A stretch of DNA of 64,000 nucleotides from the IMG/VR virus record IMGVR_UViG_3300044627_003892; one strand, 5' to 3'. The notes beneath the pieces are model-generated. The model saw nothing but the letters and a program-made list of their open reading frames with translations. It searched no databases and was not told where the DNA came from. The DNA comes from a virus. Taxonomy: Duplodnaviria > Caudoviricetes. Both the position numbers and the translations under genes were made by a program. Of the stretch, positions 2,251-55,243 are shown one piece after another (position 1 is the stretch's first letter; each line of letters begins with the position of its first letter).

Positions 2251-2298
2251 TAGTTGAATTTAAGAACAAATTCATTTAATTTTAATAAAAACTATTTT

Positions 2299-6378: not shown

Positions 6379-6761
6379 GGGGGTGTTTCTGGATTTGACA
6401 GGAATGAATTTATTATAAAACGCACGTCGGGGCTAAACTAACCCTGTAAAACTGGTTTAAAACACAAACGGCAACACAATTGCAAAACTTTCTACACTCG
6501 GTTTAATCCGTACTGAAGAAGTAACTGTAGCCTAATCTAAGATTAGTATACAACGGGGTCGGTGAGCATATAACCTTGCAACAGAAGCTTGTACCGTGGT
6601 GTGGTTTCTATCCGAAAAGGAACAAAAACCTTGTTTGTCTGTTACGGAAGGTTAATCTAAACAGAATATTTTGGAATGTTAAGAACTAACATTATCCTAA
6701 ACGTGTAGTGTTTTATCGTAAACATTTTTGGACCTGGGTTCGAAACCCAGCACCTCCACCA
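6379..6761 (+). ncRNA. ssrA: tmRNA
   Basis: 5' GGGGGTG pairs with 3' CACCTCC-A-CCA including G3:U; GATTTGAC D-loop analogue; CTGGGTTCGAAACCCAG T-arm; internal tag ORF 6470-6535. Confidence 0.92.
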
Positions 6762-9252: not shown

Positions 9253-9259
9253 AAAATAG

Positions 9260-9333
9260 TACCCCCGAAGGGATTCGAACCCCTGGCCCACAGATTAGAA
9301 ATCTGTTGCTCTATCCTACTGAGCTACGAAGGC
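9260..9333 (-). tRNA. tRNA-Arg (UCU), CCA not encoded
   Basis: GCCTTCGTAGCTCAGTAGGATAGAGCAACAGATTTCTAATCTGTGGGCCAGGGGTTCGAATCCCTTCGGGGGTA; ACAGA/TCTGT stem around TT-TCT-AA; TATATTTG promoter upstream. Confidence 0.92.
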
Positions 9334-25534: not shown

Positions 25535-27196
25535 TCAAACAATTGGTTTATAAAATTTATGATTTCCGATTGTTGTAGTGTATTTTAATTTGGAATAATC
25601 CCAACTTGGTTTAATTGACGTTGTATGGTAAAATTCAGCACCTTTTGTATTATCAGTACCTTTCTTTTTAATATAATTTTTAACAAGGTTTTGAGCGGTT
25701 TCCCAAGCGGAACCATCCTTAGGGTTTTTTAAAATAGATTTATTTATCTTATTTAAAAAATTATCAGTAGTTGTATCATTCCAAATTGAAAATTGTTTTT
25801 TTTGTAAAACAACATCTTTTGGCGATTTTTTTAGACTATCTGCTCTATTTCTAATAACATTTGCAACTGCTTTCATTCCTTCAGAACCTTCTCCTCTAGC
25901 CTCCCCCCATATGGTTGCGGCAACAATTAAATCATCTTTAGTTAAATTGTCTTTTTCTATTGGTTTTATTGTTTTTACCATTTTCTTAGCGCCGTCAATA
26001 ACACCTTCTTTTGATTTATCACTAGCACCCGTCAACTTGTTAACGTCATCCCAAAAAGTATCTGAGTTTTGATTTTGTTTTATACCCATAATTTTATTCA
26101 CATCATCAAAAACTGATTGTTCGTTAACATTTGGTTTTAAAACCGTCATTGCTTCAGGAAAATCTTTATTTAAAACATCTTCGTCTTTATTATCGTAAGG
26201 AATATTTTGTAAAACGTATCTAATTGAATTTAAACCTGAAATTTTCTTATCATTAGAATCTAAAACAACCCAAGGGTGGTTAACTGTTGATGTCTTATCA
26301 AAAAGTTTTTGTTTATACTCTGTGAACTTTTCCCATACATCTTGCATCTTTTCATCATTCTCAGAATACTTCCAATATTTCAATGGTGACTTTTGTCTGA
26401 AATCAAATCTTTTAGCCTGAGTTTCTTTATCTATTGAGAACCAAAGTTTAAATAGATAATCACCATCAACAACCAATGATTCTTCAAAGTCCTGAACATT
26501 ATCCATAAAGTCCTCATACTCTTCTGAAGAACCGTAACCCATTACAGGTTCAACTAAACCTCTATTATACCAACTTCTATCAAAGAAGTTTATCTTACCT
26601 TTCTCAATTTGATTTCTGTATCTATCCCACCAGTTTTTTCTTTCGTCAGGTGTCGGAATGCCAAGAGCAATAACTTTATAATATCTTGGATTTAAGTTTT
26701 CAGTAAACTTTTTAATTGTTGAACCTTTACCTGCTGAATCTCTCCCTTCAAAAACAATAATAACAGTTTTACCTGTTTGTTTTAACCATTCTTGTAATTT
26801 TAAAAGTTCAACCTGTAAGAAAAATATTTCTTTCTTGTAAATGTCTTTATCTAAAATTGACGGTTCCTCTTCGGGACTAACAACTTCTTTTTTAGTTTTT
26901 CTTTTTTCTAATGACTTAGTTAGTTGTTTAAAAAATTCAAAAACATTAATATCCTTATTACCTTTTAATTTCAAAGTTTTTAAAATACCTCTTGTAAGTA
27001 ATCCAAAATCAACTAACCCTTCTTTTGAATATTCTTCAATCTTATTAATAAATTTTTGAATTTGAGCACTATATACTTTGTTGTCTTTTAAAATTGCAAC
27101 GAGAGATTTAACCTCAGGGCTATACTTTGGTTTGTCAGCTTCTGTCAAACCCATATTATTTTTTATCTTACTAACTTCAGTTAATAAATTCCTCAT
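25535..27196 (-). CDS. ppk2: Polyphosphate kinase 2 fused to a C-terminal SleB/CwlJ-like cell-wall hydrolase
   Basis: FEGRDSAGKG Walker A, FFDRSWYNR, PWVVLDSNDKK; C-terminal IWGEARGE...AVANVIRNR...KQFS...FYH...IGNHKFY. Confidence 0.88.
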   Translation of the reverse strand: MRNLLTEVSKIKNNMGLTEADKPKYSPEVKSLVAILKDNKVYSAQIQKFINKIEEYSKEGLVDFGLLTRGILKTLKLKGNKDINVFEFFKQLTKSLEKRKTKKEVVSPEEEPSILDKDIYKKEIFFLQVELLKLQEWLKQTGKTVIIVFEGRDSAGKGSTIKKFTENLNPRYYKVIALGIPTPDERKNWWDRYRNQIEKGKINFFDRSWYNRGLVEPVMGYGSSEEYEDFMDNVQDFEESLVVDGDYLFKLWFSIDKETQAKRFDFRQKSPLKYWKYSENDEKMQDVWEKFTEYKQKLFDKTSTVNHPWVVLDSNDKKISGLNSIRYVLQNIPYDNKDEDVLNKDFPEAMTVLKPNVNEQSVFDDVNKIMGIKQNQNSDTFWDDVNKLTGASDKSKEGVIDGAKKMVKTIKPIEKDNLTKDDLIVAATIWGEARGEGSEGMKAVANVIRNRADSLKKSPKDVVLQKKQFSIWNDTTTDNFLNKINKSILKNPKDGSAWETAQNLVKNYIKKKGTDNTKGAEFYHTTSIKPSWDYSKLKYTTTIGNHKFYKPIV

Positions 27197-42615: not shown

Positions 42616-43116
42616 TTATTTTTTCCCAAAGATATTCATAAACTCTTTCTCGTAATCACGTCTCTCAACCTTAACAGTATTTACATGAAACTTAACAAAC
42701 TTAACGTCAGTATATATCATAGGAAATGACATGTTGATTTTATCACCCAACTTCTCAGGAGATAATACCTCACTTGAATCCCAATTGTATCTAACATCAA
42801 CATATACCAAATACGTTGGGGTAGATTCAAAACTATCAACAGTATATGTAAATTTAGTTTCAAACTTATTAATAACAATTGAATTAATACCAGGTAAACT
42901 CTTCTTAAGGACCTTGAATAATAATTCAGGAAAAACAAATTCACCATCCTTATTATACGTTCTGTTGTTCATTGAAGAACCACGATAATCACCATCAAGA
43001 TACGGATTAACAGTTATTCCTCCATTAGTTACACGATAATTACCATAATCCCTTGTTAACAAAACATTATCTCCTAAAATATTCATCACACTAATATTTT
43101 CTTCTTCAGGTTCCAT
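42616..43116 (-). CDS. Hypothetical protein
   Basis: 166 aa. Confidence 0.65.
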   Translation of the reverse strand: MEPEEENISVMNILGDNVLLTRDYGNYRVTNGGITVNPYLDGDYRGSSMNNRTYNKDGEFVFPELLFKVLKKSLPGINSIVINKFETKFTYTVDSFESTPTYLVYVDVRYNWDSSEVLSPEKLGDKINMSFPMIYTDVKFVKFHVNTVKVERRDYEKEFMNIFGKK

Positions 43117-43165
43117 ATATATTTTTTTTACAAAGATAAAACAATAATACTAATTTACCAAAAGA

Positions 43166-43408
43166 TTATTTAACATCAGAAAATGAATCCGTATTAATAA
43201 ACTCAGATTCCAAATGACCAATAATATCCCTAAGAGTCTGACCCTGTAACTCAGGGGTTTCCCTACTACGAATAGATAAAGCAAGACCTCCACACAATAC
43301 AGACATAATATCATCCATATTCATACCCTTCATGGCCATTATGTTATAAAAAAACTTATTGTCCTTTAATGTTACATCCACAGTAACTGATAATCTCTCT
43401 TCTTCCAT
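43166..43408 (-). CDS. Hypothetical protein
   Basis: 80 aa. Confidence 0.65.
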   Translation of the reverse strand: MEEERLSVTVDVTLKDNKFFYNIMAMKGMNMDDIMSVLCGGLALSIRSRETPELQGQTLRDIIGHLESEFINTDSFSDVK

Positions 43409-43429
43409 ATATTAATAATAAAATAAAAA

Positions 43430-43680
43430 ACCCAATTTTCCAAAAAATTTCCCAAAATTTATTTTTTATATATAGGGAACATTTTAAAACAAAGGGTCGC
43501 TTTTCTAAAAAATTTTTCCAGGATTTTTTTGAGGGGATTATCCCCCCTTCTGACCCAAAAAACCCCCTGTGAAAGGGGGGATACGGGAGGGGGTACCCCA
43601 TAGGTAGGGGTATAGGAGGGGGTAGTAGGGGGTGTTGATAACTTTTAATAAGTATCCCCTCCCCTTTACATTAGGTCACA
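43430..43680. other. Non-coding low-complexity block: phased A/T tracts followed by a dense G-tract cluster
   Basis: aaaaa-ttt-cc repeats at 43426-43520; seven G3-G6 runs at 43575-43632. Confidence 0.7.
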
Positions 43681-43765
43681 TCCTTTTACCACTGCTACTA
43701 TGGTAACCATTAGTAGACAGTATAGGATGATAGCTTGATTGGGTGTGATGGTAAATCGTTTCATA

Positions 43766-43954
43766 TTATCTTCTGTGTTTCTTAGGGGTACACTGATGTT
43801 GTAGTTGGCTCTTCCCCTTGTTCACACGTTTAGTTTGTTTATACATCTTCTGTTGTGTGTTAGAATGTTTCTTGTAGTTGTACCCACGTTGTGGGGTAGA
43901 ACAAGATGTTAGTATAACGACTAACATGATTAGGGGTAATATATATTTCTTCAT
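43766..43954 (-). CDS. Small basic lipoprotein
   Basis: MKKYILPLIMLVVILTSC lipobox; TATATTTG promoter upstream. Confidence 0.65.
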   Translation of the reverse strand: MKKYILPLIMLVVILTSCSTPQRGYNYKKHSNTQQKMYKQTKRVNKGKSQLQHQCTPKKHRR

Positions 43955-43999
43955 AATGTATAGACTACAAATATAGTTCAAAGGTTTCTTATATACAAA

Positions 44000-44302
44000 T
44001 TATTTCTTAGACAAATCAAGTAGTATGATTGGTAGTCTATCTTTATCTACATATGACAACACATCATCGTAGTCAGATAGTTTAATCCAATCACCTTGGT
44101 CACCCCACCATGCCGCTACCTCGAATGTATCAACTCCATCACCACGTAACATATTCATCCCACCGACAATAGATTGAAGACCACCACCTACAATAGATAC
44201 TGTGATATTGTTGGGGAGTGTAAGTAATCCTTGTACCGCACCCTTTACCACGTTGTGGGGTTTGAAGTCAAAGTCTTTAATGGTATATATCTTCTGTCTC
44301 AT
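44000..44302 (-). CDS. Hypothetical protein
   Basis: 100 aa; TATATTTG promoter upstream. Confidence 0.7.
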   Translation of the reverse strand: MRQKIYTIKDFDFKPHNVVKGAVQGLLTLPNNITVSIVGGGLQSIVGGMNMLRGDGVDTFEVAAWWGDQGDWIKLSDYDDVLSYVDKDRLPIILLDLSKK

Positions 44303-44629
44303 TACTACAAATATAAGATAATATCTTGGGGAAATATATTTGTTTATTTAAAAAATCCGCCGTAACTTAGCTTGGTGCTTTATATGTTTTTTTTTTATAA
44401 CAAGAGCGTCAACACAAAGATACGGCGAAGAAAGTTAATATCCTAATTTTTTATTAATTATTTTTGTTGTAACTTAGCCCCGTAAGTGTACCTTATAACG
44501 ATAAGGGGATAAAGGGCTGGCACGGTTAATGCTTGGAGTGTGTACTCCACCCTGCTTTTAAAAAAAAAGAAGATTTTTCTTGTGGGGGAAGAAAATTGTT
44601 GTATATTTGTAGAACAATAAACAACCACT

Positions 44630-45052
44630 ATGAAAATCACCCAAGACAAACTATCAACCAAATTGTTAATGAGATTCATCAAGAAGCAAAACCTTGTTGT
44701 TATGACTGACACATGGAACCACTTCGGTGAGGTATCGGTTCGTATTGTATCTGTGGGTGAGACAGACAAGTGGAATTGGAACACCAACTCTTATGGTCGT
44801 GTGATTAACATAGAGGTAACCCTAAAGAGAGAAGGTCACCGTTACGCTGAGTCATCAATCCCAAGTGTTAACTCTTGGCGTAGTCATCACAGAGCAAGTT
44901 ACTTCAAGAGCAGAAAGTGGTCAGCTAACAATGGGGCACAGAAACTAATCAACAACACAATCATCCCCACGTTCTTCAAAGCAGCTTGTATCTCATTACC
45001 AAGACACACTGACGAAATCATCGGAAACATCACCTACAAATTTATTGACTAA
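44630..45052 (+). CDS. Hypothetical protein
   Basis: 140 aa; TATATTTG at 44602-09. Confidence 0.7.
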   Translation: MKITQDKLSTKLLMRFIKKQNLVVMTDTWNHFGEVSVRIVSVGETDKWNWNTNSYGRVINIEVTLKREGHRYAESSIPSVNSWRSHHRASYFKSRKWSANNGAQKLINNTIIPTFFKAACISLPRHTDEIIGNITYKFID

Positions 45053-45053
45053 T

Positions 45054-45440
45054 ATGAAACTCAAAGATAGATTAGATACATACACAACCACCGAACTTCG
45101 TAAGATGGGGTTACAACTTATAACCATAGTTAGAAAGACACTCGGTCATGGAAACAAACCATCCCCGAAACTGAAAATTAGAAATGGGTTAACAAACCTC
45201 TATGGTCAATACGATTATGAAGCATTAGTTATCAACCCATCCACATGTGAGACTGTTGATAAGTTTGTAAAAACAATCATACACGAATACACCCACCACA
45301 TACAAAAAGGTATCAAACGTAACTACGCATCATCACAATCAAAACATGGTTATTGGAACTGTCCCTTTGAAGTGGAAGCTCGGGGGAATGAAACAAAGTA
45401 CAAGAGTATTGTATGGAAACAATTTAAACAAATCCCTTAA
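45054..45440 (+). CDS. HExxH metallopeptidase-like protein
   Basis: KTIIHEYTHHIQ...YWNCPFEVEAR. Confidence 0.65.
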   Translation: MKLKDRLDTYTTTELRKMGLQLITIVRKTLGHGNKPSPKLKIRNGLTNLYGQYDYEALVINPSTCETVDKFVKTIIHEYTHHIQKGIKRNYASSQSKHGYWNCPFEVEARGNETKYKSIVWKQFKQIP

Positions 45441-45720
45441 CATGGTTGTCCAAAATACGTATTGGATTTTCCTGACCCTTGAATAACTCCATGAACTCAG
45501 GGGTAAGTGAATACAATGTTAATATCTTCATGTCCCCTTGGTATGTAGATGATGCTTTCCTATACTCCATCTTACCCACCTTTTCCCCATTATAATATAG
45601 GGTCACAGCAACAACATCCCGTAAAGGGTCAGTTATAACCCTTACATTTTTCAGTATGTCAGTTATTGAAATGGGGTTAGACATATCGTCAGGGGGAATT
45701 GTTGATAAATTATTATTCAT
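45424..45720 (-). CDS. Hypothetical protein
   Basis: 98 aa; TATTTAT-type motif upstream. Confidence 0.55.
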   Translation of the reverse strand: MNNNLSTIPPDDMSNPISITDILKNVRVITDPLRDVVAVTLYYNGEKVGKMEYRKASSTYQGDMKILTLYSLTPEFMELFKGQENPIRILDNHVKGFV

Positions 45721-46476
45721 TTTTTCTTGATTTTGTCAAAATGTCAGTTGAGTGTCAGATGGGGGATAATCCCCTTGACGGGTTTTAGTCATATTAACAA
45801 CTATAAATATAGTGTATATTATGTATATTGTCCATAGGTAAATGTTCCCACTTTTTACCACTGACGTATGTGTAGTGAGGGTTTTTGGTTATATGAAAAG
45901 TGAAAAAAGTGGTCCTCCTGATAGTGTGAGAAGGGTTTTTTTAACTATATACATTTTCCAGATAAAAATAGGATGTAACAATAAAGTGGCGTGGACAGAC
46001 TTTAGTTGTTTAAATCCTTCAACGAAAAGTGTATTTCATTGTGTCTTCAAGGGGGTTTTTAAGATTTCCCCTTACCATATAGACACATGATATCGACAAT
46101 TATAGTGGTGGTAAAAAGTGGGACATATGTTTCATATCACTATAGTCAGGTTAAACCTGACATAACAGATATGTTTCGTATTGTCCCCTTCACATTCCAC
46201 CATATATTTTATACCCTAACAGGTATACTCATATCATCTTATATACCCTTTAGGGTATTTCATTATCCCGATGGGGTACAATACCATTAACAGTAATATG
46301 TTATGTCCCTTCATAGTGTGTGTCTTTCATTATGGGGAATTATTATAGATTAGTGTTGTACGTTAATTATAGATTCATACAATAGGGGAAATTAGGAAGT
46401 AAATAAAGGAATGGACCCATTAGTGTAATGACCCGAAGGGGAATGGAACGACACGATAGTGGAATGGGGGAATGAG

Positions 46477-46508
46477 TTTGTTTAATTCATAATTTCTTAT
46501 TATATTTG
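46477..46508 (+). promoter_or_regulatory. Bacteroidota sigma-A promoter of the array-bearing gene
   Basis: TTTG(46477-80)-N20-TATATTTG(46501-08), ATG at 46513. Confidence 0.75.
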
Positions 46509-46512
46509 TACT

Positions 46513-47307
46513 ATGGTTATTACAGATAGATTAAAACAAATTATTTTTAAACACCTATATAGAGAGTTAGGTGATTGTGAGATTATTCCTTATAATGGGT
46601 CTATATGGTTCATTAATAGGGATAATAAACATTGGTACTTTGAACTTGATGAGTCAGGTACTTTATGGTGGAGATACGATTTTTTTAATTCGTTTTTTCA
46701 AATATTCTCCATGAGTTCGGATGATTTTTGTCCTGTTCTATCTTCTTGGGTGGAAGAGGTCTTAAATCATAAGGTATCCACAACCCAGGATAGCCTGTGT
46801 AACGTATGTAAACTGGTGGAAGAGGTCTTAAATCATAAGGTATCCACAACCTTCATTCCACTTCCAATTACAACGGACAAGGTGGAAGATGTATTAAATC
46901 ATAAGGTATCCACAACGTGCGATGTTAAAGTTCGTGTTCCTTGGAAGGTGGAAGATGTATTAAGTCATAATGTTAAGGTGTCTACAACTACCATTCTCAA
47001 ATACCCCGAGCATTCATTGGTGGAAAAGGTCTTAAATCATAAGGTATCCACAACCGATTCACTTGATTACGTTGGAAGAATTGAGGTAGAAGAGGTATTA
47101 AATCATAGGGTATCTAGAACCTGCCAAACAAGCGTTTATTGTGATAGGACGGTGGAAGAGGTCTTAAATCATAAGGTATCCACAACGCAGAATTTGAATT
47201 ATGTCGGCCAAGGACTGGTGGAAGATGTATTAAATCATAAGGTATCTACAACGGAATCGTATTTTGGACCCTTCACAAGAGGGGTGGAAGAGGTATTAAA
47301 TCAATAA
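46513..47307 (+). CDS. Array-bearing protein A: conserved ~80-aa N-domain plus 8 units of VEEVLNHKVSTT + 10 variable aa
   Basis: Uninterrupted ORF through a repeat-spacer array; N-domain paralogous to 54010, 54632 and 55230. Confidence 0.85.
   Translation: MVITDRLKQIIFKHLYRELGDCEIIPYNGSIWFINRDNKHWYFELDESGTLWWRYDFFNSFFQIFSMSSDDFCPVLSSWVEEVLNHKVSTTQDSLCNVCKLVEEVLNHKVSTTFIPLPITTDKVEDVLNHKVSTTCDVKVRVPWKVEDVLSHNVKVSTTTILKYPEHSLVEKVLNHKVSTTDSLDYVGRIEVEEVLNHRVSRTCQTSVYCDRTVEEVLNHKVSTTQNLNYVGQGLVEDVLNHKVSTTESYFGPFTRGVEEVLNQ
46749..47303 (+). CRISPR. CRISPR-like repeat-spacer array inside a CDS (8 full repeats + 1 partial, 8 spacers of 30 nt)
   Basis: Repeats start at 46749, 46815, 46881, 46947 (6-nt insertion), 47019, 47085, 47151, 47217, 47283; all spacers unique; no cas genes nearby. 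Confidence 0.6.
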
Positions 47308-47763
47308 TTAGTTATTCTCTAAAGTACCTGTATAGAAATCTAATACCATATCAAAAATATCATCTAATACATCTTTTGGTAGTTCTTCATAAGACATATA
47401 ACTTTCATCTAAAATTTGTGAGTATTTATATCCACCATAATGAAACACTGTAACATCTTCTTTATTTATCATTTCTATTTGTGAAAGTTCACCGTCTTCA
47501 TCCTTGAGGACTATTGGGTTTTCATTCATATCCATTAGTACAATATATTCATCATCGGTTGTTTCTACTACTTCCTTAATAATCTTAATCTTATTGTTTG
47601 TTGTAAGGAACTCATCACCTAACACATTTATAAGGTATTCTATACCACCGAACATTTCTCCTGTCTTTAGTAACCCCGCCTGACTTGCGATAGTTAATAA
47701 CTTCATCTGTTTTACGGTGTATTCTTCCCTTAATATTCTTTTTATGTTTTGTTGTAGGTTCAT
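47308..47763 (-). CDS. Hypothetical protein with MNLQQNIKRILREE leader
   Basis: 151 aa. Confidence 0.7.
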   Translation of the reverse strand: MNLQQNIKRILREEYTVKQMKLLTIASQAGLLKTGEMFGGIEYLINVLGDEFLTTNNKIKIIKEVVETTDDEYIVLMDMNENPIVLKDEDGELSQIEMINKEDVTVFHYGGYKYSQILDESYMSYEELPKDVLDDIFDMVLDFYTGTLENN

Positions 47764-47795
47764 AATATTATAAATATAATTATATTTATTATCAT

Positions 47796-48125
47796 ATGAA
47801 ATATCTTATAACAGAATCACAATTAGATAAAGTAATCTTTAGATATTTGGATATTAAGAACTTTATTCAGATTAAAAGAGGAAACACAATATACTTTGTT
47901 AATTCGGAAGATGATAAATATGCCCAAATCAGATATGATAGAAACGATGGTTGGTGTTATATACGCCATGGATTAATTTACGAAATTTCTTCTTTCTTTT
48001 CTTTGGACATATATGATTCTAAGGAAGTTATCGGTAGATGGGTTGAAAATACTCTACAAATGAGGGTTACTTATACCCGTTTGGTCTTTCACGATGTGAA
48101 CAATTTGTTTAAAATACCTAACTAA
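47796..48125 (+). CDS. Short paralogue of the array-bearing family, MKYLITESQL leader
   Basis: FFSL...WVENTLQMRVTYT + variable + FKIPN. Confidence 0.75.
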   Translation: MKYLITESQLDKVIFRYLDIKNFIQIKRGNTIYFVNSEDDKYAQIRYDRNDGWCYIRHGLIYEISSFFSLDIYDSKEVIGRWVENTLQMRVTYTRLVFHDVNNLFKIPN

Positions 48126-48834
48126 TAGTAATAATCTTCCACTCCCCATTATAATCTTCCACAAGACATGTAGAGTTCTCACAGAAGTCCCCTGAGTTCA
48201 TATAGTAATTCTCTATCTTCGGATGATGAATATGTCCACATACTGCCACATCATACCCCTTCTGTTTTGTTAGACCTTTTGCGTTATCCTCAAAATCAGA
48301 TACAAAGTTAATTGCCCCTTTAACAGATTGCTTTATTGTGTTTGCTAATGAATGATATGGTAAGTTAAACCACTTTCTTATTTTGTTATATAAAGTATTA
48401 AACTTAATCACAATATCATATGACCATCCACCGATTACCGCTAACCACCTCGCTTCCATTATAACGAAATCCAATACATCCCCGTGAAAACAAAAATACT
48501 TTCTATTATCTATTCCTGTATGTATATACTTTCTTACAATCCTGATGTTGTTTAATTTAAATGGAATAAAATCTTTTAGGAAGTCATCGTGGTTTCCTCT
48601 TATATAAACCACCTTTGTATTCTTCTCTGACATCTTCATGAACCTTCTGAATATCTTGGTACAATCCTTTGTCCATTTACCATTACCTTTAAGAGCCCAA
48701 CCATCTATTATATCACCGTTCAGTATTAGTTTTTCCGTTGTGTTATTATCCAAGAAACTTATTATCTTATCTGTCTGTGATTGTCTTGCTCCTAAGTGTA
48801 AATCACTCATGATTATCGTTTTCCAATTATTCAT
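48118..48834 (-). CDS. Metallophosphoesterase, LpxH-like (UDP-2,3-diacylglucosamine hydrolase family)
   Basis: SDLHLG, LNGDIIDG, RGNHD, FHGD, CGHIH, NSGD. Confidence 0.85.
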   Translation of the reverse strand: MNNWKTIIMSDLHLGARQSQTDKIISFLDNNTTEKLILNGDIIDGWALKGNGKWTKDCTKIFRRFMKMSEKNTKVVYIRGNHDDFLKDFIPFKLNNIRIVRKYIHTGIDNRKYFCFHGDVLDFVIMEARWLAVIGGWSYDIVIKFNTLYNKIRKWFNLPYHSLANTIKQSVKGAINFVSDFEDNAKGLTKQKGYDVAVCGHIHHPKIENYYMNSGDFCENSTCLVEDYNGEWKIITIS

Positions 48835-49538
48835 TCCCAGTATCCTTTATCATCCTCAAAATGATTTTTATTGTTCCTGTTGAAGAATGAACTAACCATA
48901 AGTTTTAACATATACCACACTCCTTTCTGTTTGAACCTTCTTGGACTTGTGAATACCGTTGTATTCATGATATAAAACTTGCTTGGTTTAACTTGTTTGG
49001 AGAATAGATAATCCTCGGCAACTCTTGCGTTTTCATCAAACCCACCGATTGTATCATATACTTCTTTCTTAACCATCATGAACCCACCAAGACAAAATGG
49101 TGTGATTGGTTTGAATACCTTTTGTATTGTGTCAAACAATCTGAATATACTATTATACTCACCTGTCGTTGACCTTACCTTACATGTAATCAAATCTGTA
49201 TTATGTAATAAGAACTCCCATATACAATTGTTTAATATGTTGAAATCCAATAAGAATATGTCAGCGTCCAAAAATAGAACATAAGGTGTTTCCACATTCT
49301 CTGCTCCCTTATTTCTTGCAACAGACGGAAGTCCTCCTGAAATAATCTGTAGATTAAAATAATCTGTTCTCCTATTTTCCAAAGAATAGGATGTATAATC
49401 ATCATCCGATGAATCACAAACAATAACTCTAACATCTTGTATTCCCTTTTGAAAGTTTAATAAGGACAACGTTTGTTCTATTATCTTGCCCTCGTTCTTA
49501 CAAGGGATTACTATGGTTAAAAACTTTGATAAATCCAT
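48831..49538 (-). CDS. Family 2 glycosyltransferase
   Basis: TIVIPCKNE, VCDSSDD, ARNKGA, FLDAD, GGFDE, EDY; start moved to 49538. Confidence 0.88.
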   Translation of the reverse strand: MDLSKFLTIVIPCKNEGKIIEQTLSLLNFQKGIQDVRVIVCDSSDDDYTSYSLENRRTDYFNLQIISGGLPSVARNKGAENVETPYVLFLDADIFLLDFNILNNCIWEFLLHNTDLITCKVRSTTGEYNSIFRLFDTIQKVFKPITPFCLGGFMMVKKEVYDTIGGFDENARVAEDYLFSKQVKPSKFYIMNTTVFTSPRRFKQKGVWYMLKLMVSSFFNRNNKNHFEDDKGYWE

Positions 49539-49646
49539 AATAATAACTATTAAAAACAACCTCAAACCATATTATCATATTCTTATTAAATTATTAACCC
49601 AATATGTATTGTTCAATTTTATGTGTATCTTTGTATTTATTATAAT

Positions 49647-49964
49647 ATGAAGATTGAGCATAAGGTTAAAGCAATTGTAAAACTAATTAATACATTATAC
49701 TCTCCTGACGAGATTAAAGTTAGAAAGAGTGAGTTTGATGATGAGATGTTAATTGATGTTTACGTTTCTCATATTGATGACTCATATATAACCAACCCTT
49801 ACCATTATAATCTTAATAAACTAAAGGAATTAAATTTAGAACGTGAGATTAGAAGGGCGATAAAGGATTTTTTGAGTATTAAAACAAGCGGACTTAATCC
49901 ATACACAGGTTTCGCCCCGTATGCTGTTCACGGCATAACAATAGATGTAAGATTAATATTATGA
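49647..49964 (+). CDS. Hypothetical protein
   Basis: Start moved to 49647; overlapping TATCTTTG and TATTTAT motifs upstream. Confidence 0.65.
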   Translation: MKIEHKVKAIVKLINTLYSPDEIKVRKSEFDDEMLIDVYVSHIDDSYITNPYHYNLNKLKELNLEREIRRAIKDFLSIKTSGLNPYTGFAPYAVHGITIDVRLIL

Positions 49965-50314
49965 AATACCTTATAACAGAATCAAAATTAGAGAAAGTAA
50001 TCTTTAAGTATCTTGATATTCAGGACTTTGTGATATATGACAACAAGAAGAGATTCAGCAATTATATATATTTCTTAAACAGTGAGTCAGATAGGGAATC
50101 ACAGATTAGTGTTTATACTAACAACGCCTTTGGTGAAGTTAGGAATTGGATATTTGTAAATCGTGATTTGACTGATAAATTATCTACCTTATTCCCCATT
50201 GGTAAATCGGATTGTTTGGATATAATCAAAGAATGGGTTAATAATACTTTGGGTATTAGTGATAGTACGATTTGGGATGGTCCATATGATTACAGATTAG
50301 CGGTTACAGATTAA
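49961..50314 (+). CDS. Short paralogue (MKYLITESKL...WVNNTL)
   Basis: Aligns by eye with 47796 and 51297. Confidence 0.7.
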   Translation: MKYLITESKLEKVIFKYLDIQDFVIYDNKKRFSNYIYFLNSESDRESQISVYTNNAFGEVRNWIFVNRDLTDKLSTLFPIGKSDCLDIIKEWVNNTLGISDSTIWDGPYDYRLAVTD

Positions 50315-50327
50315 TAGTTAACGAAGA

Positions 50328-50606
50328 ATGAAATACTTAATTACAGAATCACAGTTAGAATCATTTTTACTTAGAAGGTTTACAATGGATGAATTGGAAT
50401 CACTTAGGGATGATTATAACTACATTATGGATGAAGAAGATTTTGAAGATTCCGCCGACAGAGATGATTACGCTTATGAATTAATTGAAAAGTTCATTGA
50501 TAGACATAGAGGTGAAGAGTTTTTTCAATATGATGATGATACTGAATTCTATGATAAACGTTCCAAATATATTGGAGCATTACTCAAATTCTTAAACTCT
50601 AATTAA
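50328..50606 (+). CDS. Acidic hypothetical protein with MKYLITESQL leader
   Basis: 92 aa. Confidence 0.7.
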   Translation: MKYLITESQLESFLLRRFTMDELESLRDDYNYIMDEEDFEDSADRDDYAYELIEKFIDRHRGEEFFQYDDDTEFYDKRSKYIGALLKFLNSN

Positions 50607-50609
50607 TCT

Positions 50610-50939
50610 TTAGAAACCTTTTCTTTCATTATACATCCGTGTAATTCTTTTTCTATAATGATTTTCTAACCCTTGGTGTATATCATCATACCAAAATTCA
50701 TCTTCAGGTAATGTGCTAACAAATCTCCAATGTACCCCATCCATCATAAAGGTTATTGTTGTGTAGACTAACTCATCTAAAAAATGTGAACTTAAAACCT
50801 TTCTGTCTTTTGTAAGACGATAAGCACCTTCAAAAGATTCAAGAAACTCATTTTCCATTTCATCATTAGAAAGTCTTCTTTTAATTCTCGCTGATAGTTC
50901 TTCCCTCAGTATTCTTTTTATAGATTCTTTTAAGTTCAT
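50610..50939 (-). CDS. Hypothetical protein with MNLKESIKRILREE leader
   Basis: 109 aa; similar to the N-part of 52434. Confidence 0.7.
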   Translation of the reverse strand: MNLKESIKRILREELSARIKRRLSNDEMENEFLESFEGAYRLTKDRKVLSSHFLDELVYTTITFMMDGVHWRFVSTLPEDEFWYDDIHQGLENHYRKRITRMYNERKGF

Positions 50940-50972
50940 ATTATTATAAATATGATTATATTTATATTCTAT

Positions 50973-51293
50973 ATGAAATATCTTATCACCGAATCACAAT
51001 TAGATAAAGCCAAATCGGTAATAAATAATTTAATGATATCTGAGTTAAATAATATATTAGATTATGATAGAACATCAGATAGTGATTTCATTAATATATA
51101 TAGCCAGGAAAGAGGCCCTGATTTTTTTATTTTAATGGAGTTTGACCATAGTGATGGTAGATTATTTATTGATGAATCTTTTTTAGATAAGTTTTCATCC
51201 ATGTATCCACTTGATAAAGAACAATCAGGTAAATTCATTTCTGATTGGTTTAGTAAAGTATTTGATGTTGATGTTATGTTTTTTGAATATTAA
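50973..51293 (+). CDS. Hypothetical protein with MKYLITESQL leader
   Basis: Start moved to 50973. Confidence 0.7.
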   Translation: MKYLITESQLDKAKSVINNLMISELNNILDYDRTSDSDFINIYSQERGPDFFILMEFDHSDGRLFIDESFLDKFSSMYPLDKEQSGKFISDWFSKVFDVDVMFFEY

Positions 51294-51296
51294 TAT

Positions 51297-51626
51297 ATGA
51301 AATACCTTATCACCGAATCACAATTAGACAGAGTAATCTTTAGATATTTGGATATTAAGAACTTTATTCAGATTAAAAAGGGTGCAACTATATTTTTAGT
51401 TAATTTAGAAGATGATGAATACGCTGAGATTAGATATGATAAAATTAGTGGATGGTGTTACATTGTTAATAGTTTAATTAATGAAGTGGCCTCTTTCTTT
51501 TCTTTGGGTATCTCCGATTCCATGGAACTTATCCGTAGATGGGTTGAAAATACCCTCAAAGTAATAGTTGTACAAGTCCGTGGGGCTAAACCCGCACCGA
51601 ATGTATGGATAAGAGTAAATAACTAA
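51297..51626 (+). CDS. Short paralogue of the array-bearing family
   Basis: Close paralogue of 47796 (VIFRYLDIKNFIQIK...WVENTL). Confidence 0.75.
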   Translation: MKYLITESQLDRVIFRYLDIKNFIQIKKGATIFLVNLEDDEYAEIRYDKISGWCYIVNSLINEVASFFSLGISDSMELIRRWVENTLKVIVVQVRGAKPAPNVWIRVNN

Positions 51627-51634
51627 TATAATAT

Positions 51635-52045
51635 ATGAAATACATAATCACTGAGAATCAATATAGCAAAACTCTTAAACCCTTATTAGAGAAATTTGGT
51701 ATGCGTACTCTGTGTAAAATGACTGATAAGGAACCTGAAGATATTATTGATGAGATTGGTCTTAAAGGAACAAGAGAAGATATTATCTTTCTAACAAAAA
51801 CTATACTTGAAAATGATATCTCAACCGTCTTGATGTATTGTAGTTATAATATCATACCCACTCGTGACTCTATGAACTTGGTCGTCTACATACCTAAGCC
51901 AGCTCCTGCAAATGTGGGAAGGTATATCTATGAGGAAGGTACAAGAAGTATGTATAGAGATGTTATTTCTAAGGCTTTATATCAATTGGGTGGTGGTCTA
52001 ATTAGAGTTCACAATATTGAGGTTTATAATACAGGAAATTGTTAA
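51635..52045 (+). CDS. Hypothetical protein with MKYIITENQ leader
   Basis: 136 aa. Confidence 0.7.
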   Translation: MKYIITENQYSKTLKPLLEKFGMRTLCKMTDKEPEDIIDEIGLKGTREDIIFLTKTILENDISTVLMYCSYNIIPTRDSMNLVVYIPKPAPANVGRYIYEEGTRSMYRDVISKALYQLGGGLIRVHNIEVYNTGNC

Positions 52046-52061
52046 CTTATATTTATATATA

Positions 52062-52418
52062 ATGAAATATCTTATCACCGAATCAAAATTAAAAACATTC
52101 ATTAAAAACAAGTTTAATATTGACCTGACAGGTCGTGTGGAATTTGAACCTGATTCATATGAATTATTGGTTTATTTTGATAACTATCTTACTCAAGATA
52201 GTTTAGCAAGAAGACGGAGAATGGATAACTATGGTCCGATATATTTTATAGAATTAGATAATGGAAATAAAATATTTTATCAAATGAATTATAGTTCAGA
52301 CAGTCCTTTAATTCTTAGTAACGAAGGTGCTCAATATACTGAATCACAATTTATGAATTTACTTGGTATCTCAGGTCTTGGAATATCAATTGAACAATTT
52401 CTTGATTTATACGTATAA
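52062..52418 (+). CDS. Hypothetical protein with MKYLITESKL leader
   Basis: Start moved to 52062. Confidence 0.7.
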   Translation: MKYLITESKLKTFIKNKFNIDLTGRVEFEPDSYELLVYFDNYLTQDSLARRRRMDNYGPIYFIELDNGNKIFYQMNYSSDSPLILSNEGAQYTESQFMNLLGISGLGISIEQFLDLYV

Positions 52419-52433
52419 GATACTTAATCACTA

Positions 52434-53234
52434 TTAGATTAACGTACCAACATATCCTAATGCATCCCAATGACTCTTTCCTTTTGGTGTCTTAGTTGCA
52501 CCCGCTACCACATCTAATCCTCTTGCTTTCGATGGACCTGTAATAACATGTGATGATGGAACTCCTTTACCTACCGCAGACTGAACTGAACTTGATGTAT
52601 TCTTAGATATAGCGTAAGGTTCTACTATGAATAACTTACTTTTGTTTTTAATAAGAGAAGCAACTTTAGATGAGTATGAACATCCTGCACTGAATAATAC
52701 AACTGTCGCGTTAGGATTTTGTATGATTGCGGTTTCAATCTTATCAAATTGATTATATCTATATCCTATAACATTTTTCTTTGAACTATTACTTTTAAGT
52801 AAGTTTATTTGTTCACCTATGTTTAAGTCTCCCTTTCTATAATCTAATCCACCCATTAATATAACATCAACAATTGGAGCTTTAGAATCTTTTTTATCAT
52901 CAGACTCCGTTGATTCGTATATGACATCAACACATTCTTTATTATAAAACCTTTCTAAGTCATCCCTCATGTAGTTTTCTACATACGTAACACCATCTTT
53001 ATATTTTAACCACTCAGACAACGGACCATCGGTATCAGAACCATCTGTAATCATGTCCATAATTTCATGTTGTATACCACGCATGAATGCTTCAAAGTTT
53101 TCAAAATCACATGGATAATTAGTTACATTGTTATCCCATACAAACGATTTAAATCTATTCAATCTTCTTTTGAACTTTGGTGAAAAATCTGTTTCTTCCC
53201 TTAATACTTTTTTTATATTCTCTTGTAGGTTCAT
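52434..53234 (-). CDS. MNLQE-leader protein with possible minimal alpha/beta-hydrolase C-domain
   Basis: VILMGG...VLFSAG elbow-like motif (weak). Confidence 0.55.
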   Translation of the reverse strand: MNLQENIKKVLREETDFSPKFKRRLNRFKSFVWDNNVTNYPCDFENFEAFMRGIQHEIMDMITDGSDTDGPLSEWLKYKDGVTYVENYMRDDLERFYNKECVDVIYESTESDDKKDSKAPIVDVILMGGLDYRKGDLNIGEQINLLKSNSSKKNVIGYRYNQFDKIETAIIQNPNATVVLFSAGCSYSSKVASLIKNKSKLFIVEPYAISKNTSSSVQSAVGKGVPSSHVITGPSKARGLDVVAGATKTPKGKSHWDALGYVGTLI

Positions 53235-53266
53235 AATATTATAAATATAATTATATTTATTATTAC

Positions 53267-53638
53267 ATGAAGTATATTATTACCGAGTCACAACATAAAT
53301 TAATATCCGAACTTGAAAGAACTTGGAGAGATTCTGAATATACGGAACAATACAATAGACTAAAACCTAAAATGATTCGTTATTTTGAAAATTTGGTTGA
53401 TTCACATTCTGAAAATGATGTAAGACTTAACTTATTTGATAGTGACCAAAACGCCGTAATGGTTTATAATAAACCAAGTGGTGATTTATACTATAATAGG
53501 AACTTTGACGATATATATGGTACAGCCTTTCCTCATCCCATTTGGTTAGTTCACGGCAAATTCATTATGTCAGATGTATTTAATGAGTTCTTTCCTGACT
53601 ACGAAGTTAAATCAGTTAGAAGTATAACATTATCATGA
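53267..53638 (+). CDS. Hypothetical protein with MKYIITESQ leader
   Basis: 123 aa. Confidence 0.7.
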   Translation: MKYIITESQHKLISELERTWRDSEYTEQYNRLKPKMIRYFENLVDSHSENDVRLNLFDSDQNAVMVYNKPSGDLYYNRNFDDIYGTAFPHPIWLVHGKFIMSDVFNEFFPDYEVKSVRSITLS

Positions 53639-53973
53639 AATATTTAATCACAGAATCACAATTAGATAAAGCAATACTCAAGTTTCTTGATAGTCAGGAT
53701 TTTAATATAACTAAAATTGGTGCCAGTACATATATTTCATACCCTGAAGATGATTTTGCTCAGATTAAATATGGTGGTAATCATTCCAATAATGAATTGT
53801 GTTTTATCTATAAAGGTTTAATTGAAGCAATTTCTTCCTTCTTTTCTCTTAACAGTTATCAATCCACCAGAATTGTTGGGCAATGGGTTAAGAAAAAACT
53901 GAATTTGGAGGGTCAAATGTCCAACAAGATAATGAGCTCCCAATGGTCGTTAAAATTACCAACTGAAGATTAA
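53635..53973 (+). CDS. Short paralogue of the array-bearing family
   Basis: ISSFFSL...WVKKKL...LKLPT. Confidence 0.7.
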   Translation: MKYLITESQLDKAILKFLDSQDFNITKIGASTYISYPEDDFAQIKYGGNHSNNELCFIYKGLIEAISSFFSLNSYQSTRIVGQWVKKKLNLEGQMSNKIMSSQWSLKLPTED

Positions 53974-54004
53974 TTTGTATTTTCAAAGTTTTTTTGTATC
54001 TTTG
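53974..54004 (+). promoter_or_regulatory. Bacteroidota sigma-A promoter of the three-gene array operon
   Basis: TTTG(53974-77)-N19-TATCTTTG(53997-54004), ATG at 54010. Confidence 0.75.
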
Positions 54005-54009
54005 TGCTT

Positions 54010-54648
54010 ATGGTTACAGATAAGCTAAAACAACTCATATTCAAACACCTATACAAAGAGTTAGGTAATGTGGAGATAATCCCGTATAAAGACTCTGTAT
54101 GGTTCATTGATAGGGAAAATTGTTATTGGTATTTTCAGTTGTCTAAAGATGGATGTTTATTTTGGAGATACTCATTCTTCCCATCGTTTTTCAGTATTTT
54201 CTCTTTGGAGCAAAGTGAGTTTGAACCAATAATATCTTCTTGGGTGGAAGAGGTATTAAATCATAAGGTATCCACGACAGGTAATAAGCTCGGTTACTTC
54301 TCGCGAAAGGTGGAAGAGGTATTAAATCATAAGGTATCCACAACAAAAATGTTTGTAATTGACGAATTTCCTCTGGTGGAAGAGGTATTAAATCATAAGG
54401 TATCCACAACTGAAGAGAAAACTACTGTAACAGCAAAGTGGGTGGAAGAGGTCTTAAATCATAAGGTATCCGAAACTTTTGAAGTAGACGCCGCCCAAAA
54501 AAGAAAGGTAAAAAAAGTATTAGATAGTAGGGTATCAACAACTAAAAATAATTCCTTATTTTCCGAAAGGTCAGTGGAAGAAGTATTAAATAGTGCTTGG
54601 GTGAAAAAGGCATTAAACAATAAAAAAGAAAATGAAAGTAACGGATAG
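54010..54648 (+). CDS. Array-bearing protein B (5 units)
   Basis: Same N-domain; VEEVLNHKVSTT repeats. Confidence 0.85.
   Translation: MVTDKLKQLIFKHLYKELGNVEIIPYKDSVWFIDRENCYWYFQLSKDGCLFWRYSFFPSFFSIFSLEQSEFEPIISSWVEEVLNHKVSTTGNKLGYFSRKVEEVLNHKVSTTKMFVIDEFPLVEEVLNHKVSTTEEKTTVTAKWVEEVLNHKVSETFEVDAAQKRKVKKVLDSRVSTTKNNSLFSERSVEEVLNSAWVKKALNNKKENESNG
54243..54591 (+). CRISPR. CRISPR-like array in CDS (5 full repeats + 1 partial, 5 spacers of 30 nt)
   Basis: Repeats at 54243, 54309, 54375, 54441, 54507, 54573; degeneracy increases toward the 3' end. Confidence 0.6.
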
Positions 54649-55243
54649 ATTAAGACAACTCATATTCAAACAACTATACAAAGAATTAGGTAATGTGGAA
54701 ATTATCCCTACCCAATACAGTTATTGGTTTATTAATAGAGAAGAAAAATACTGGTATTTCCAACTAACTGAAAGTGGATGTTTATATTGGAGATATGATT
54801 ATTTCAAATCTTTCTTTTCTTTTTTCTCTTTGGAGTCCAAAGATTTTGAACCAATTATTTCATCTTGGGTGGAAGAGGTATTGAATAGTAAAGTATCCAC
54901 AACAATTGTGCAGATGCATCATAAGAAGGATTCGGTGGAAGAGGTATTGAATAGTAAGGTATCCACAACTCAGCAATTCAGTTTCACTTCGAATGATATG
55001 ATGGAAGAGGTATTGAATAGTAAGGTATCCACAACTGCAGGAAAGGCAGGAACTGTAACCATTGCGGTGGAACAGGTATTGAATCGTAAGGTATCCAAAA
55101 CAGTCCGTGACGTAGGTGAAGGAAACTTTTTGGTGGAAGATATATTGAATCGTAAGGTATCCAAAACGGAAGAATTCATCTCAAGAAGAGCGGAATCGGT
55201 ATATGAGGCATTAAACAACAAAAAAGAAAATGAAAGTAACTGA
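54632..55243 (+). CDS. Array-bearing protein C (5 units)
   Basis: VEEVLN(S/R)KVS(T/K)T repeats. Confidence 0.85.
   Translation: MKVTDRLRQLIFKQLYKELGNVEIIPTQYSYWFINREEKYWYFQLTESGCLYWRYDYFKSFFSFFSLESKDFEPIISSWVEEVLNSKVSTTIVQMHHKKDSVEEVLNSKVSTTQQFSFTSNDMMEEVLNSKVSTTAGKAGTVTIAVEQVLNRKVSKTVRDVGEGNFLVEDILNRKVSKTEEFISRRAESVYEALNNKKENESN
54868..55215 (+). CRISPR. CRISPR-like array in CDS (5 full repeats + 1 partial, 5 spacers of 30 nt)
   Basis: Repeats at 54868, 54934, 55000, 55066, 55132, 55198; gene-specific variant GGTGGAAGAGGTATTGAATAGTAAGGTATCCACAAC. Confidence 0.6.

Follow-up and report, generated by a model that had tools for sequence, protein, structure and literature searches.

The stretch of DNA analysed here, hereafter the window, comprises 64,000 nucleotides (nt) of AT-rich jumbo-phage DNA (~30% GC) from the IMG/VR virus record IMGVR_UViG_3300044627_003892. 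It contains four repeat arrays (46749-47303, 54243-54620, 54868-55220 and 55466-55950), in which copies of a 36-nt repeat, with the consensus GGTGGAAGAGGTATTAAATCATAAGGTATCCACAAC, are separated by unique intervals, or spacers, of 30 nt. All four arrays sit within paralogous + strand open reading frames (ORFs), named here genes A, B, C and D, and form the translated C-terminal halves of these genes. The ORFs follow a single plan, i.e., an N-domain of 79 amino acids (aa), followed by 22-aa units that consist of VEEVLNHKVSTT (12 constant residues) and 10 variable residues.

46513..47307, + strand: gene A, with the 79-aa N-domain, 8 units (36-nt repeat plus 30-nt spacer) and a truncated terminal repeat (VEEVLNQ, stop)
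46749..46784, + strand: leader-proximal 36-nt repeat that opens array A, with its base 1 (G) at the wobble position of the closing Trp codon of the N-domain
54004..54648, + strand: gene B, with the N-domain and a 5-spacer array with a degenerate end, identical in the relative G001
54632..55243, + strand: gene C, with the N-domain and a 5-spacer array, the leader-proximal unit of which is unlike that of G001
55230..55964, + strand: gene D, with the N-domain and a 7-spacer array, the first unit and one internal unit of which are unlike those of G001

Array A has eight full repeats, the one at 46749-46784 being the first of them, and one repeat of gene A bears a 6-nt insertion that keeps the frame. 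The comparisons presented below cover the nearest relative, G001 (IMG/VR, 240,759 bp), together with six IMG/VR loci and 79 metagenome loci. At E values of up to 1e-5, some 930 database proteins match, all of them unnamed and with lengths that step by 22 residues, and their sources are freshwater phage contigs of 230-307 kb. The array proteins have no match in Pfam.

The arrays are constrained by translation along their whole length. In the 55 spacer clusters of the window, G001 and the six IMG/VR loci, 495 codons of the coding frame contain 0 stops, compared with 18-53 in the other five frames, and a larger set of 1917 codons contains seven (68-164 in the other frames), six of which come from mis-registered reverse-strand chains and one from the end of an array. 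The period is 66 nt in 606 of the 607 intervals, a multiple of three that stays open and in frame through all of the units. No array was found to continue past its stop codon, and the repeat-like matches located after the stops are part of the tandem paralog that follows.

An RNA-labelled lake run contains a variant of the array that is shorter, which is no proof of transcription. In this library, a 151-nt contig, which extends beyond the gene A stop codon, joins positions 46946 and 47217, and the resulting variant is 270 nt shorter.

The N-domain is homologous over its full length to stand-alone paralogs of the MKYLITESQL family, with the W, V and L of the motif WVxxxL invariant, and homology to the repeat peptide WVEEVLNHKVSTT is found in the last helix and strand of paralogs that consist of a single domain and lack an array. 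In a confident model of one such paralog (predicted local distance difference test, pLDDT, 89), WVENTL falls within the last helix and the residues that follow it lie in the final strand; the model has no known fold match in the PDB or the AlphaFold clusters. One of these paralogs can be given as an example:

47796..48125, + strand: array-less paralog of a single domain, from a group of several at 47796-53973, in which the helix and strand at the C-terminus (WVENTLQMRVTYT) show homology to the repeat peptide and the DNA has only 14-18/36 identity to VI-B repeats

As the repeat peptide is homologous to the C-terminus of the domain, the first repeat overlaps an integral part of that domain, and the repeat may have arisen from the gene itself. 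The original prediction, which was made from the sequence of the window, had derived the arrays from a type VI-B (Cas13b) CRISPR locus of the host, a derivation that finds no support in a repeat peptide shared with array-less paralogs.

This homology, the stop-free frame, the frame-keeping insertion and the lack of cas genes in the phage all suit an ordinary 22-residue protein tandem repeat with a conserved and a diversifying half, homogenised by gene conversion, in which any likeness to Cas13b repeats would be due to chance. False CRISPR calls within repeat proteins are, moreover, common. Nevertheless, the units are not related to one another over their whole length by duplication and divergence, as those of a tandem-repeat protein would be, and the repeat region has no confident fold: the AlphaFold model of the array protein is poor (pLDDT 48), with a repeat tail that falls below 50 and is predicted to be disordered. 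Together with the nucleotide-level evidence that follows, this makes an ordinary protein repeat a decidedly unlikely explanation.

The repeat as a DNA-level unit and its likeness to VI-B repeats

The boundaries of the repeat are those of a DNA segment, and they do not coincide with codons. Base 1 falls on the wobble position of the preceding variable codon, but in 280 of 285 distinct units this position is occupied by G, when G makes up 11% of third positions genome-wide. At the opposite end, Thr codon 11 is ACA in all 235 of 235 units and Thr codon 12, the third base of which opens the spacer, varies among ACT, ACC, ACA and ACG (87, 72, 61 and 49 units), so that conservation stops exactly at base 36. 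Between these borders, rare codons are frozen, with GTG accounting for 93% of Val codons (9% genome-wide), and GAG, AAG and TCC for 93%, 97% and 65% (18%, 22% and 3% genome-wide). The variation that does occur in the repeat is not concentrated at third codon positions (56/46/64), and the first 18 nt are unchanged in a phage with an N-domain that is only ~40% identical.

A protein repeat accounts neither for a conserved block that starts on a wobble position and stops between adjacent Thr codons, nor for this distribution of the variation over codon positions. Constant length, sharp borders (at G1 and between Thr codons 11 and 12) and unique 30-nt spacers are, by contrast, what is broadly understood as a CRISPR array. 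In a divergent relative (L015:2992-4476; N-domain ~40% identical), a protein of 494 aa with ~13 units has repeats that end in GGTAGAAACAAC, not GGTATCCACAAC, which may track a different host repeat.

The resemblance of the repeat at 46749-46784 to the VI-B repeats of Bacteroidota, the central claim of the original prediction, is real, non-random and significant, and it proves closer than that prediction had supposed. The Riemerella repeat named in that prediction could not be confirmed, and was replaced by real repeats adjoining cas13b. A scan of 185,579 species genomes for the 3' 11-mer of the repeat, recurring at 61-69 nt, recovered true CRISPR arrays in Bacteroidota only, i.e., in Flavobacterium columnare (the VI-B repeat of which is printed in PMC5395568), F. 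covae, Flavobacterium sp. J27 and Dysgonomonas termitidis, and all four adjoin Cas13b (NCBIfam model NF038190). Without gaps, 23 of 36 positions of the phage consensus (64%), and 12-13 of the last 14 nt, are identical in the repeats of F. columnare and J27, and the phage copies that end in TCTACAAC match the J27 repeat at 14 of 14 positions at the 3' end.

Since these repeats had been retrieved with part of the phage sequence, a second set was obtained through the Cas13b protein model alone. The two VI-B repeats recovered in this way, independently of the phage sequence, match the phage repeat at 22/36 and 16/36 positions, and a best-of-two score of at least 22 was reached in 1.9e-5 of a million shuffles; a likeness of this order (P ~2e-5) speaks against a protein repeat that resembles Cas13b repeats by chance. 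In the pattern-retrieved repeats, 13 of the 25 nt that lie outside the retrieval 11-mer are identical (P ~0.01). The homologous DNA of the array-less paralogs is only 11-18/36 identical to VI-B repeats, and the likeness is therefore specific to the arrayed repeat.

The 3' end ACAAC is found in 469 of 759 phage units and the 5' end is GGTG, compared with GTTG...CAAC at the termini of VI-B repeats; the II-C repeat of F. columnare also has the end CCACAAC in common with the phage repeat. In the host VI-B loci, cas13b and the leader are on the GTTG side, ...ACAAC is leader-distal, and transcription runs from the leader into the array, just as the promoter, N-domain and variable end of the phage arrays are all on the GGTG side. 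The VI-B arrays of Flavobacterium, which are fed in trans by II-C Cas1-Cas2 in F. columnare (PMC8092290), thus share with the phage a 36-nt repeat with a spacer of ~30 nt, G at position 1, a near-identical leader-distal block of 13-14 nt (within positions 23-36), a leader on the same side, the same direction of transcription, the same polarity with the variable end beside the leader, a distally truncated terminal repeat (after ~20 nt in the phage and 25 nt in F. columnare), and the lack of cas1/cas2 in cis. They differ in that the phage arrays are phage-borne and translated within ORFs, with coding sequence in the place of the leader, and have no cas13b, no Cas13b hairpin and no protospacers found, and in that the phage spacers are all exactly 30 nt, as against 29-31 nt in the host arrays.

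In the VI-B arrays of Flavobacterium sp. J27 (L040) and F. covae (L051), some repeats are interrupted at one and the same internal position by ~50 inserted nt, and these long repeats are interspersed among normal 36-nt ones. In F. covae AL-02-36 (L077 / G004), cas13b is broken by many stop codons, and the adjacent VI-B array of 11 repeats is intact.

The hairpin is the part of a VI-B repeat that the phage lacks. The five true VI-B repeats folded here form a two-stem hairpin, with a terminal stem and an inner stem of 6 bp, at -7 to -11 kcal/mol (z -2.5 to -3.4), whereas the fold of the phage repeat, which has no inner stem, is no more stable than -3 to -5.4 kcal/mol (z -0.3 to -1.3). As the original prediction correctly observed, its pairing is confined to GUGGA/UCCAC, and even this is lost in a divergent relative. 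The Cas13b model NF038190, which did detect cas13b beside all four host arrays, has no match in G001 (82% complete), tblastn found no cas genes in the window, G001 or the related loci, and neither Cas1 nor Cas13b is encoded by the phage according to the profile and tblastn searches.

Given this, the arrays are very unlikely to act as RNA mimics, whether as decoys that titrate Cas13b, in the manner of the solitary repeat units of viruses (Racrs), or as guides that redirect it. Such a role would be in keeping with the match of the 3' 13-14 nt to Flavobacterium VI-B repeats, with strong host-type promoters predicted ahead of the arrays and with the phage-borne repeat mimics that are known to inhibit Cas effectors (PMC10651486). 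It would require the hairpin that defines Cas13b CRISPR RNAs, which is missing here, the fold being no better than that of shuffled sequences, and it leaves the strict frame and the freedom from stops unexplained; no spacer targets were found, and the Racrs and mini-arrays described so far do not code for protein and have repeats nearly identical to those of the host. The decoy and guide roles that the original prediction had proposed are thus unlikely, and of its three proposals only the remaining one, a target of adaptation in trans, fits the data, given the gain of whole units on the leader side, the conserved G1 and the polarity of the arrays.

For a type II-A integrase, both steps of integration are guided by the repeat, through G at position 1 and a ruler element that occupies positions 28-32 of the 36 nt (PMC6895254). 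As G1 and positions 23-36 are kept in the phage repeat and the hairpin is absent, the conserved parts are those read by an integrase and not those read by Cas13b. The likeness is, then, of the kind expected of a substrate of the type II/VI-B adaptation module, rather than of a Cas13b ligand.

Turnover of the arrays and nature of the spacers

Turnover was counted over 84 complete distinct arrays and 228 spacer clusters. Orthologous arrays differ by whole 66-nt units, and these changes are polar and collinear. For example, the first two units of gene A are wholly different from those of G001 and units 3-5 are identical, and gene C has one leader-proximal unit in the window where G001 has two others. 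Apart from internal losses, array A corresponds to the arrays of L179 and L180 with one extra leader-proximal unit, which, in the spacer scan, precedes the unit that stands first in four other phages.

The order of the spacers is in conflict in only two of the 690 array pairs that have at least two spacers in common. The array-specific spacers number 1144 on the leader side, 751 internally and 371 on the trailer side. The repeats beside the N-domain are close to the consensus (0.6-0.8 mismatches) and decay distally to 2.5-5 mismatches, and G1 declines from 100% to 82% with increasing distance from the N-domain. Growth at the leader end, collinear order and distal decay of the repeats are likewise features of CRISPR arrays in the broad sense, and such a polar constraint is at odds with a protein repeat, in which it would be uniform.

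The distinct spacers are mutually unrelated, given that their all-against-all identities follow those of a shuffled control, with orthologs at 23/30 or more, all other pairs at 19/30 or less and none at 20-22; an origin by duplication and divergence was rejected on this comparison. The GC content of the spacers is 41.7%, compared with 32% in the phage. The stop-free filter was considered as the cause of this difference and rejected, as it adds only ~1.3 points, raising DNA of 30-32% GC to 31-33.5%. The amino-acid make-up of the spacers (e.g., R 6.0%, W 2.5%, C 2.4%) resembles that of random translation and differs from the phage proteome. Variable halves with a foreign composition and without common ancestry speak, once more, against a protein repeat. 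Approximately 51% of random 30-mers would pass the frame filter, and it would therefore be feasible for a translated array to be fed by blind integration.

Hypervariable cores between repeated constant flanks, behind a leader, also recall the multi-core peptide precursors of the cyanobactin type, in which the N-domain would be the leader, the constant 12-mers recognition sites and the variable 10-mers the released peptides. The conservation of the flanks at the nucleotide level and the predicted disorder of the tail would be compatible with this. It is a most improbable reading, however, given that no protease, cyclase or other maturation enzyme is found nearby, that the N-domain is modelled as a folded domain and has many stand-alone paralogs, and that neither the CRISPR-repeat likeness nor the polarity of the arrays would be explained.

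Integration in trans as a proposed source of the arrays

The repeat is probably a genuine DNA-level CRISPR-type repeat, which lies in frame in four paralogous early genes of a Bacteroidota jumbo phage. The explanation preferred here, which in our judgement has about an even chance of being correct, is that CRISPR-type arrays grow at their leader end by Cas1-Cas2-type integration, supplied in trans by the host and filtered by translation. The growth site would be the junction of the N-domain coding sequence, which would serve as the leader, and the first repeat, where a host integrase of the Cas1-Cas2 type would insert a 30-bp fragment and duplicate the first repeat. Only stop-free insertions of 30 nt would survive translation, and each event would add 22 codons, i.e., 12 constant and 10 novel ones.

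The model for a supply in trans would be the II-C module that serves the cas1-less VI-B array of F. columnare, and the original prediction had cited this case accurately, as the acquisition of spacers in trans by an array without cas1/cas2 is documented (PMC8092290). The phage repeat would have retained the signals of a type II integrase, namely G1, the length of 36 bp and the leader-distal block 23-36, and the hairpin read by Cas13b would have been lost, or never present. The more specific proposal, that a II-C-type host module integrates 30-bp fragments into the phage genes, and that spacer acquisition has become a translation-filtered generator of protein segments, is put forward more tentatively, and is somewhat less likely to be true than false. 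The likeness of the sequences, the borders at the level of DNA, the constraint by translation and the polar, collinear turnover of whole units are shown by the data, whereas Cas1-Cas2 as the agent, the presence of such a module in the host and the role of the variable tails are inferred.

The arrays may have originated when a fragment was integrated at a repeat-like site within the gene, the repeat being refined later, an order of events that is itself deduced. In a laboratory study of E. coli type I-E, Nivala and colleagues (2018) reportedly found that Cas1-Cas2 can integrate off target, at genomic sites that resemble repeats, and duplicate the flank (neo-CRISPR). A similar process would explain how a coding segment, the last helix and strand of the domain, became a repeat of the ruler length of the integrase, beginning at a wobble base. 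To our knowledge, such integration has not been reported in phage genes, as kept in frame, or as giving rise to a lasting family.

Other systems offer partial parallels. The II-A repeat ends in ...ACAAC, in agreement with the coordinates given for it. In Streptococcus thermophilus II-A, the repeat is also of 36 nt, G1 is needed for the attack on the first site, and the ruler element (28-32) sets the second site 8 bp downstream (PMC6895254); subtype and host are different. The known virus-borne mini-arrays and Racrs are non-coding, have 1-2 spacers, are near-identical to the host repeat and act as RNAs (PMC10651486, reviewed in PMC11656645). The phage arrays resemble them as CRISPR-type repeats on a virus without cas genes, which presumably meet the CRISPR machinery of the host, and are unlike them in having 5-16 units that are translated, at most 64% identity to any repeat found, and no RNA structure. 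As in diversity-generating retroelements and tandem-repeat proteins, a phage gene family has a hypervariable part and a copy number that changes in steps of one unit; unlike the retroelements, the phage has no reverse transcriptase, template repeat or adenine-specific changes, and whole unrelated 30-nt cassettes are replaced with exact borders.

Several observations weigh against integration by a host Cas1-Cas2. Among 607 intervals, the sole off-period unit is of 65 nt (one repeat on a short contig has lost 1 nt), yet real VI-B spacers vary from 29 to 31 nt. An identity of 64% is far below that of the known virus-borne repeats, and the repeat of the true host may differ from those compared; Cas13b was present in only five of the 401 Flavobacteriaceae sampled, and, given the homology of the repeat peptide to a conserved part of the array-less paralogs, the repeat is unlikely to have been simply captured from an array of the host. 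Between orthologous spacers, 17 changes are synonymous and 14 non-synonymous, a sign that the peptides are under purifying selection, and turnover is not fast, since array A in exactly the form of the window was found in 14 lake-water runs from 2018 to 2024. A spacer GC content of 41.7% does not fit donors of 30-32% GC, and donors of ~40% GC would be predicted.

The search for protospacers adds to these points. A search of ~1 Mb of related phage DNA turned up no protospacer, the only IMG/VR matches of the four spacers compared with it were other arrays, and the spacers of the window had no match in small database samples of 401 Flavobacterium and 401 Bacteroidota genomes. As regards self-targeting, the spacers had only chance-level matches of 14-21 nt in the window, G001 and all of the other loci compared. 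In the opposite direction, 128 host spacers from nine VI-B and II-C arrays have no match to the phage beyond chance, and the species that carry these arrays are therefore not shown to be its hosts. The II-C protospacer-adjacent motif is NNNNNTAAA. A 17-nt AT-rich spacer match just 5' of the F. columnare cas13b was judged to be due to chance.

The persistence of array A, the purifying selection on spacers and the lack of protospacers are all accommodated by the main rival explanation, turnover by recombination alone. Here the arrays would have formed earlier, CRISPR-like or otherwise, and their units would now be only lost or shuffled, by recombination between the repeats of co-infecting phages, from an old pool, the VI-B likeness being a relic. 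Internal gains and losses are frequent, with 751 internal differences, and a collinear order is what homologous exchange predicts. On the other hand, recombination alone explains neither the source of 228 unrelated 30-nt segments with exact borders, nor the 3:1 bias of the leader over the trailer side, nor the polar decay of the repeats, nor the retention of G1 and the frozen synonymous sites in a relative with an N-domain that is ~40% identical, and on balance this explanation is considered rather unlikely.

If Cas1-Cas2 does extend the arrays, CRISPR adaptation would for the first time be seen to write sequence that is translated, and the genes would be the first phage family built in this way, with an integrase known only for immunity put to a protein-diversifying use. 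CRISPR adaptation would then be linked to protein hypervariability, and the arrays would provide natural substrates for the study of the repeat requirements of type II integrases. If the integrase is not the agent, the family would still be notable, with its ~930 members and four genes per genome in abundant freshwater jumbo phages, and a cassette-wise, polar and border-exact turnover of coding DNA is explained by no described mechanism. In practical terms, CRISPR finders and gene callers each capture only half of such loci.

Other features of the window

The Bacteroidota promoter motif TTTG-N18-21-TAnnTTTG is enriched in the window, with 11 sites against 4.1 expected, and these promoters, identified by their sequence motif, point to a Bacteroidota host. 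The search for a host through the ClpC-like ATPase returned phage relatives only, and the public phage collection has no DNA or protein match to the phage. The predicted elements 5' of the array genes and in the putative leader are as follows.

46477..46508, + strand: Bacteroidota-type promoter (TTTG-N20-TAnnTTTG) directly 5' of gene A, predicted by motif scan
53974..54004, + strand: Bacteroidota-type promoter 5' of gene B, predicted by motif scan
46681..46699, + strand: T-runs at -69..-63 and -56..-51 from the repeat junction, a weak observation, since these T-runs are at the same time the codons for the FF motifs of the domain

The second T-run (-56..-51) overlaps the position of the poly(T) found at -59..-51 in the host VI-B and II-C leaders (PMC8092290), a weak correspondence. 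Just 5' of gene A there is an ORF-poor stretch (43100-46500), with a GC content of up to 37% and no Rfam match. Searches of Rfam over 46400-56100 at E values of up to 10, and over the whole window at the gathering threshold, found no CRISPR direct-repeat family and only a transfer-messenger RNA (tmRNA) and a tRNA. The tmRNA gene (6379-6761, +; RF00023, 126 bits) has an unusual predicted tag, AKLSTLGLIRTEEVTVA, and the tRNA is a tRNA-Arg(TCT) at 9259-9333 (-).

Near the arrays, the window encodes a metallophosphoesterase, a GT2 glycosyltransferase and paralogs of unassigned function. Two large paralog families (47796-53973 and 47308-57532) have nearly identical first 40-60 nt, including the upstream DNA; their members begin with MKYLITESQL... 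on the + strand, the family to which the N-domain of the array genes belongs, and with MNLQE.IKRILREE... on the - strand. Further away, the window encodes a ClpC/ClpB-like double AAA+ ATPase (2254-4362), for which freshwater metagenomes contain near-identical relatives by the hundreds, and, at 25535-27196, a fusion of polyphosphate kinase 2 (PPK2) with a cell-wall hydrolase domain.

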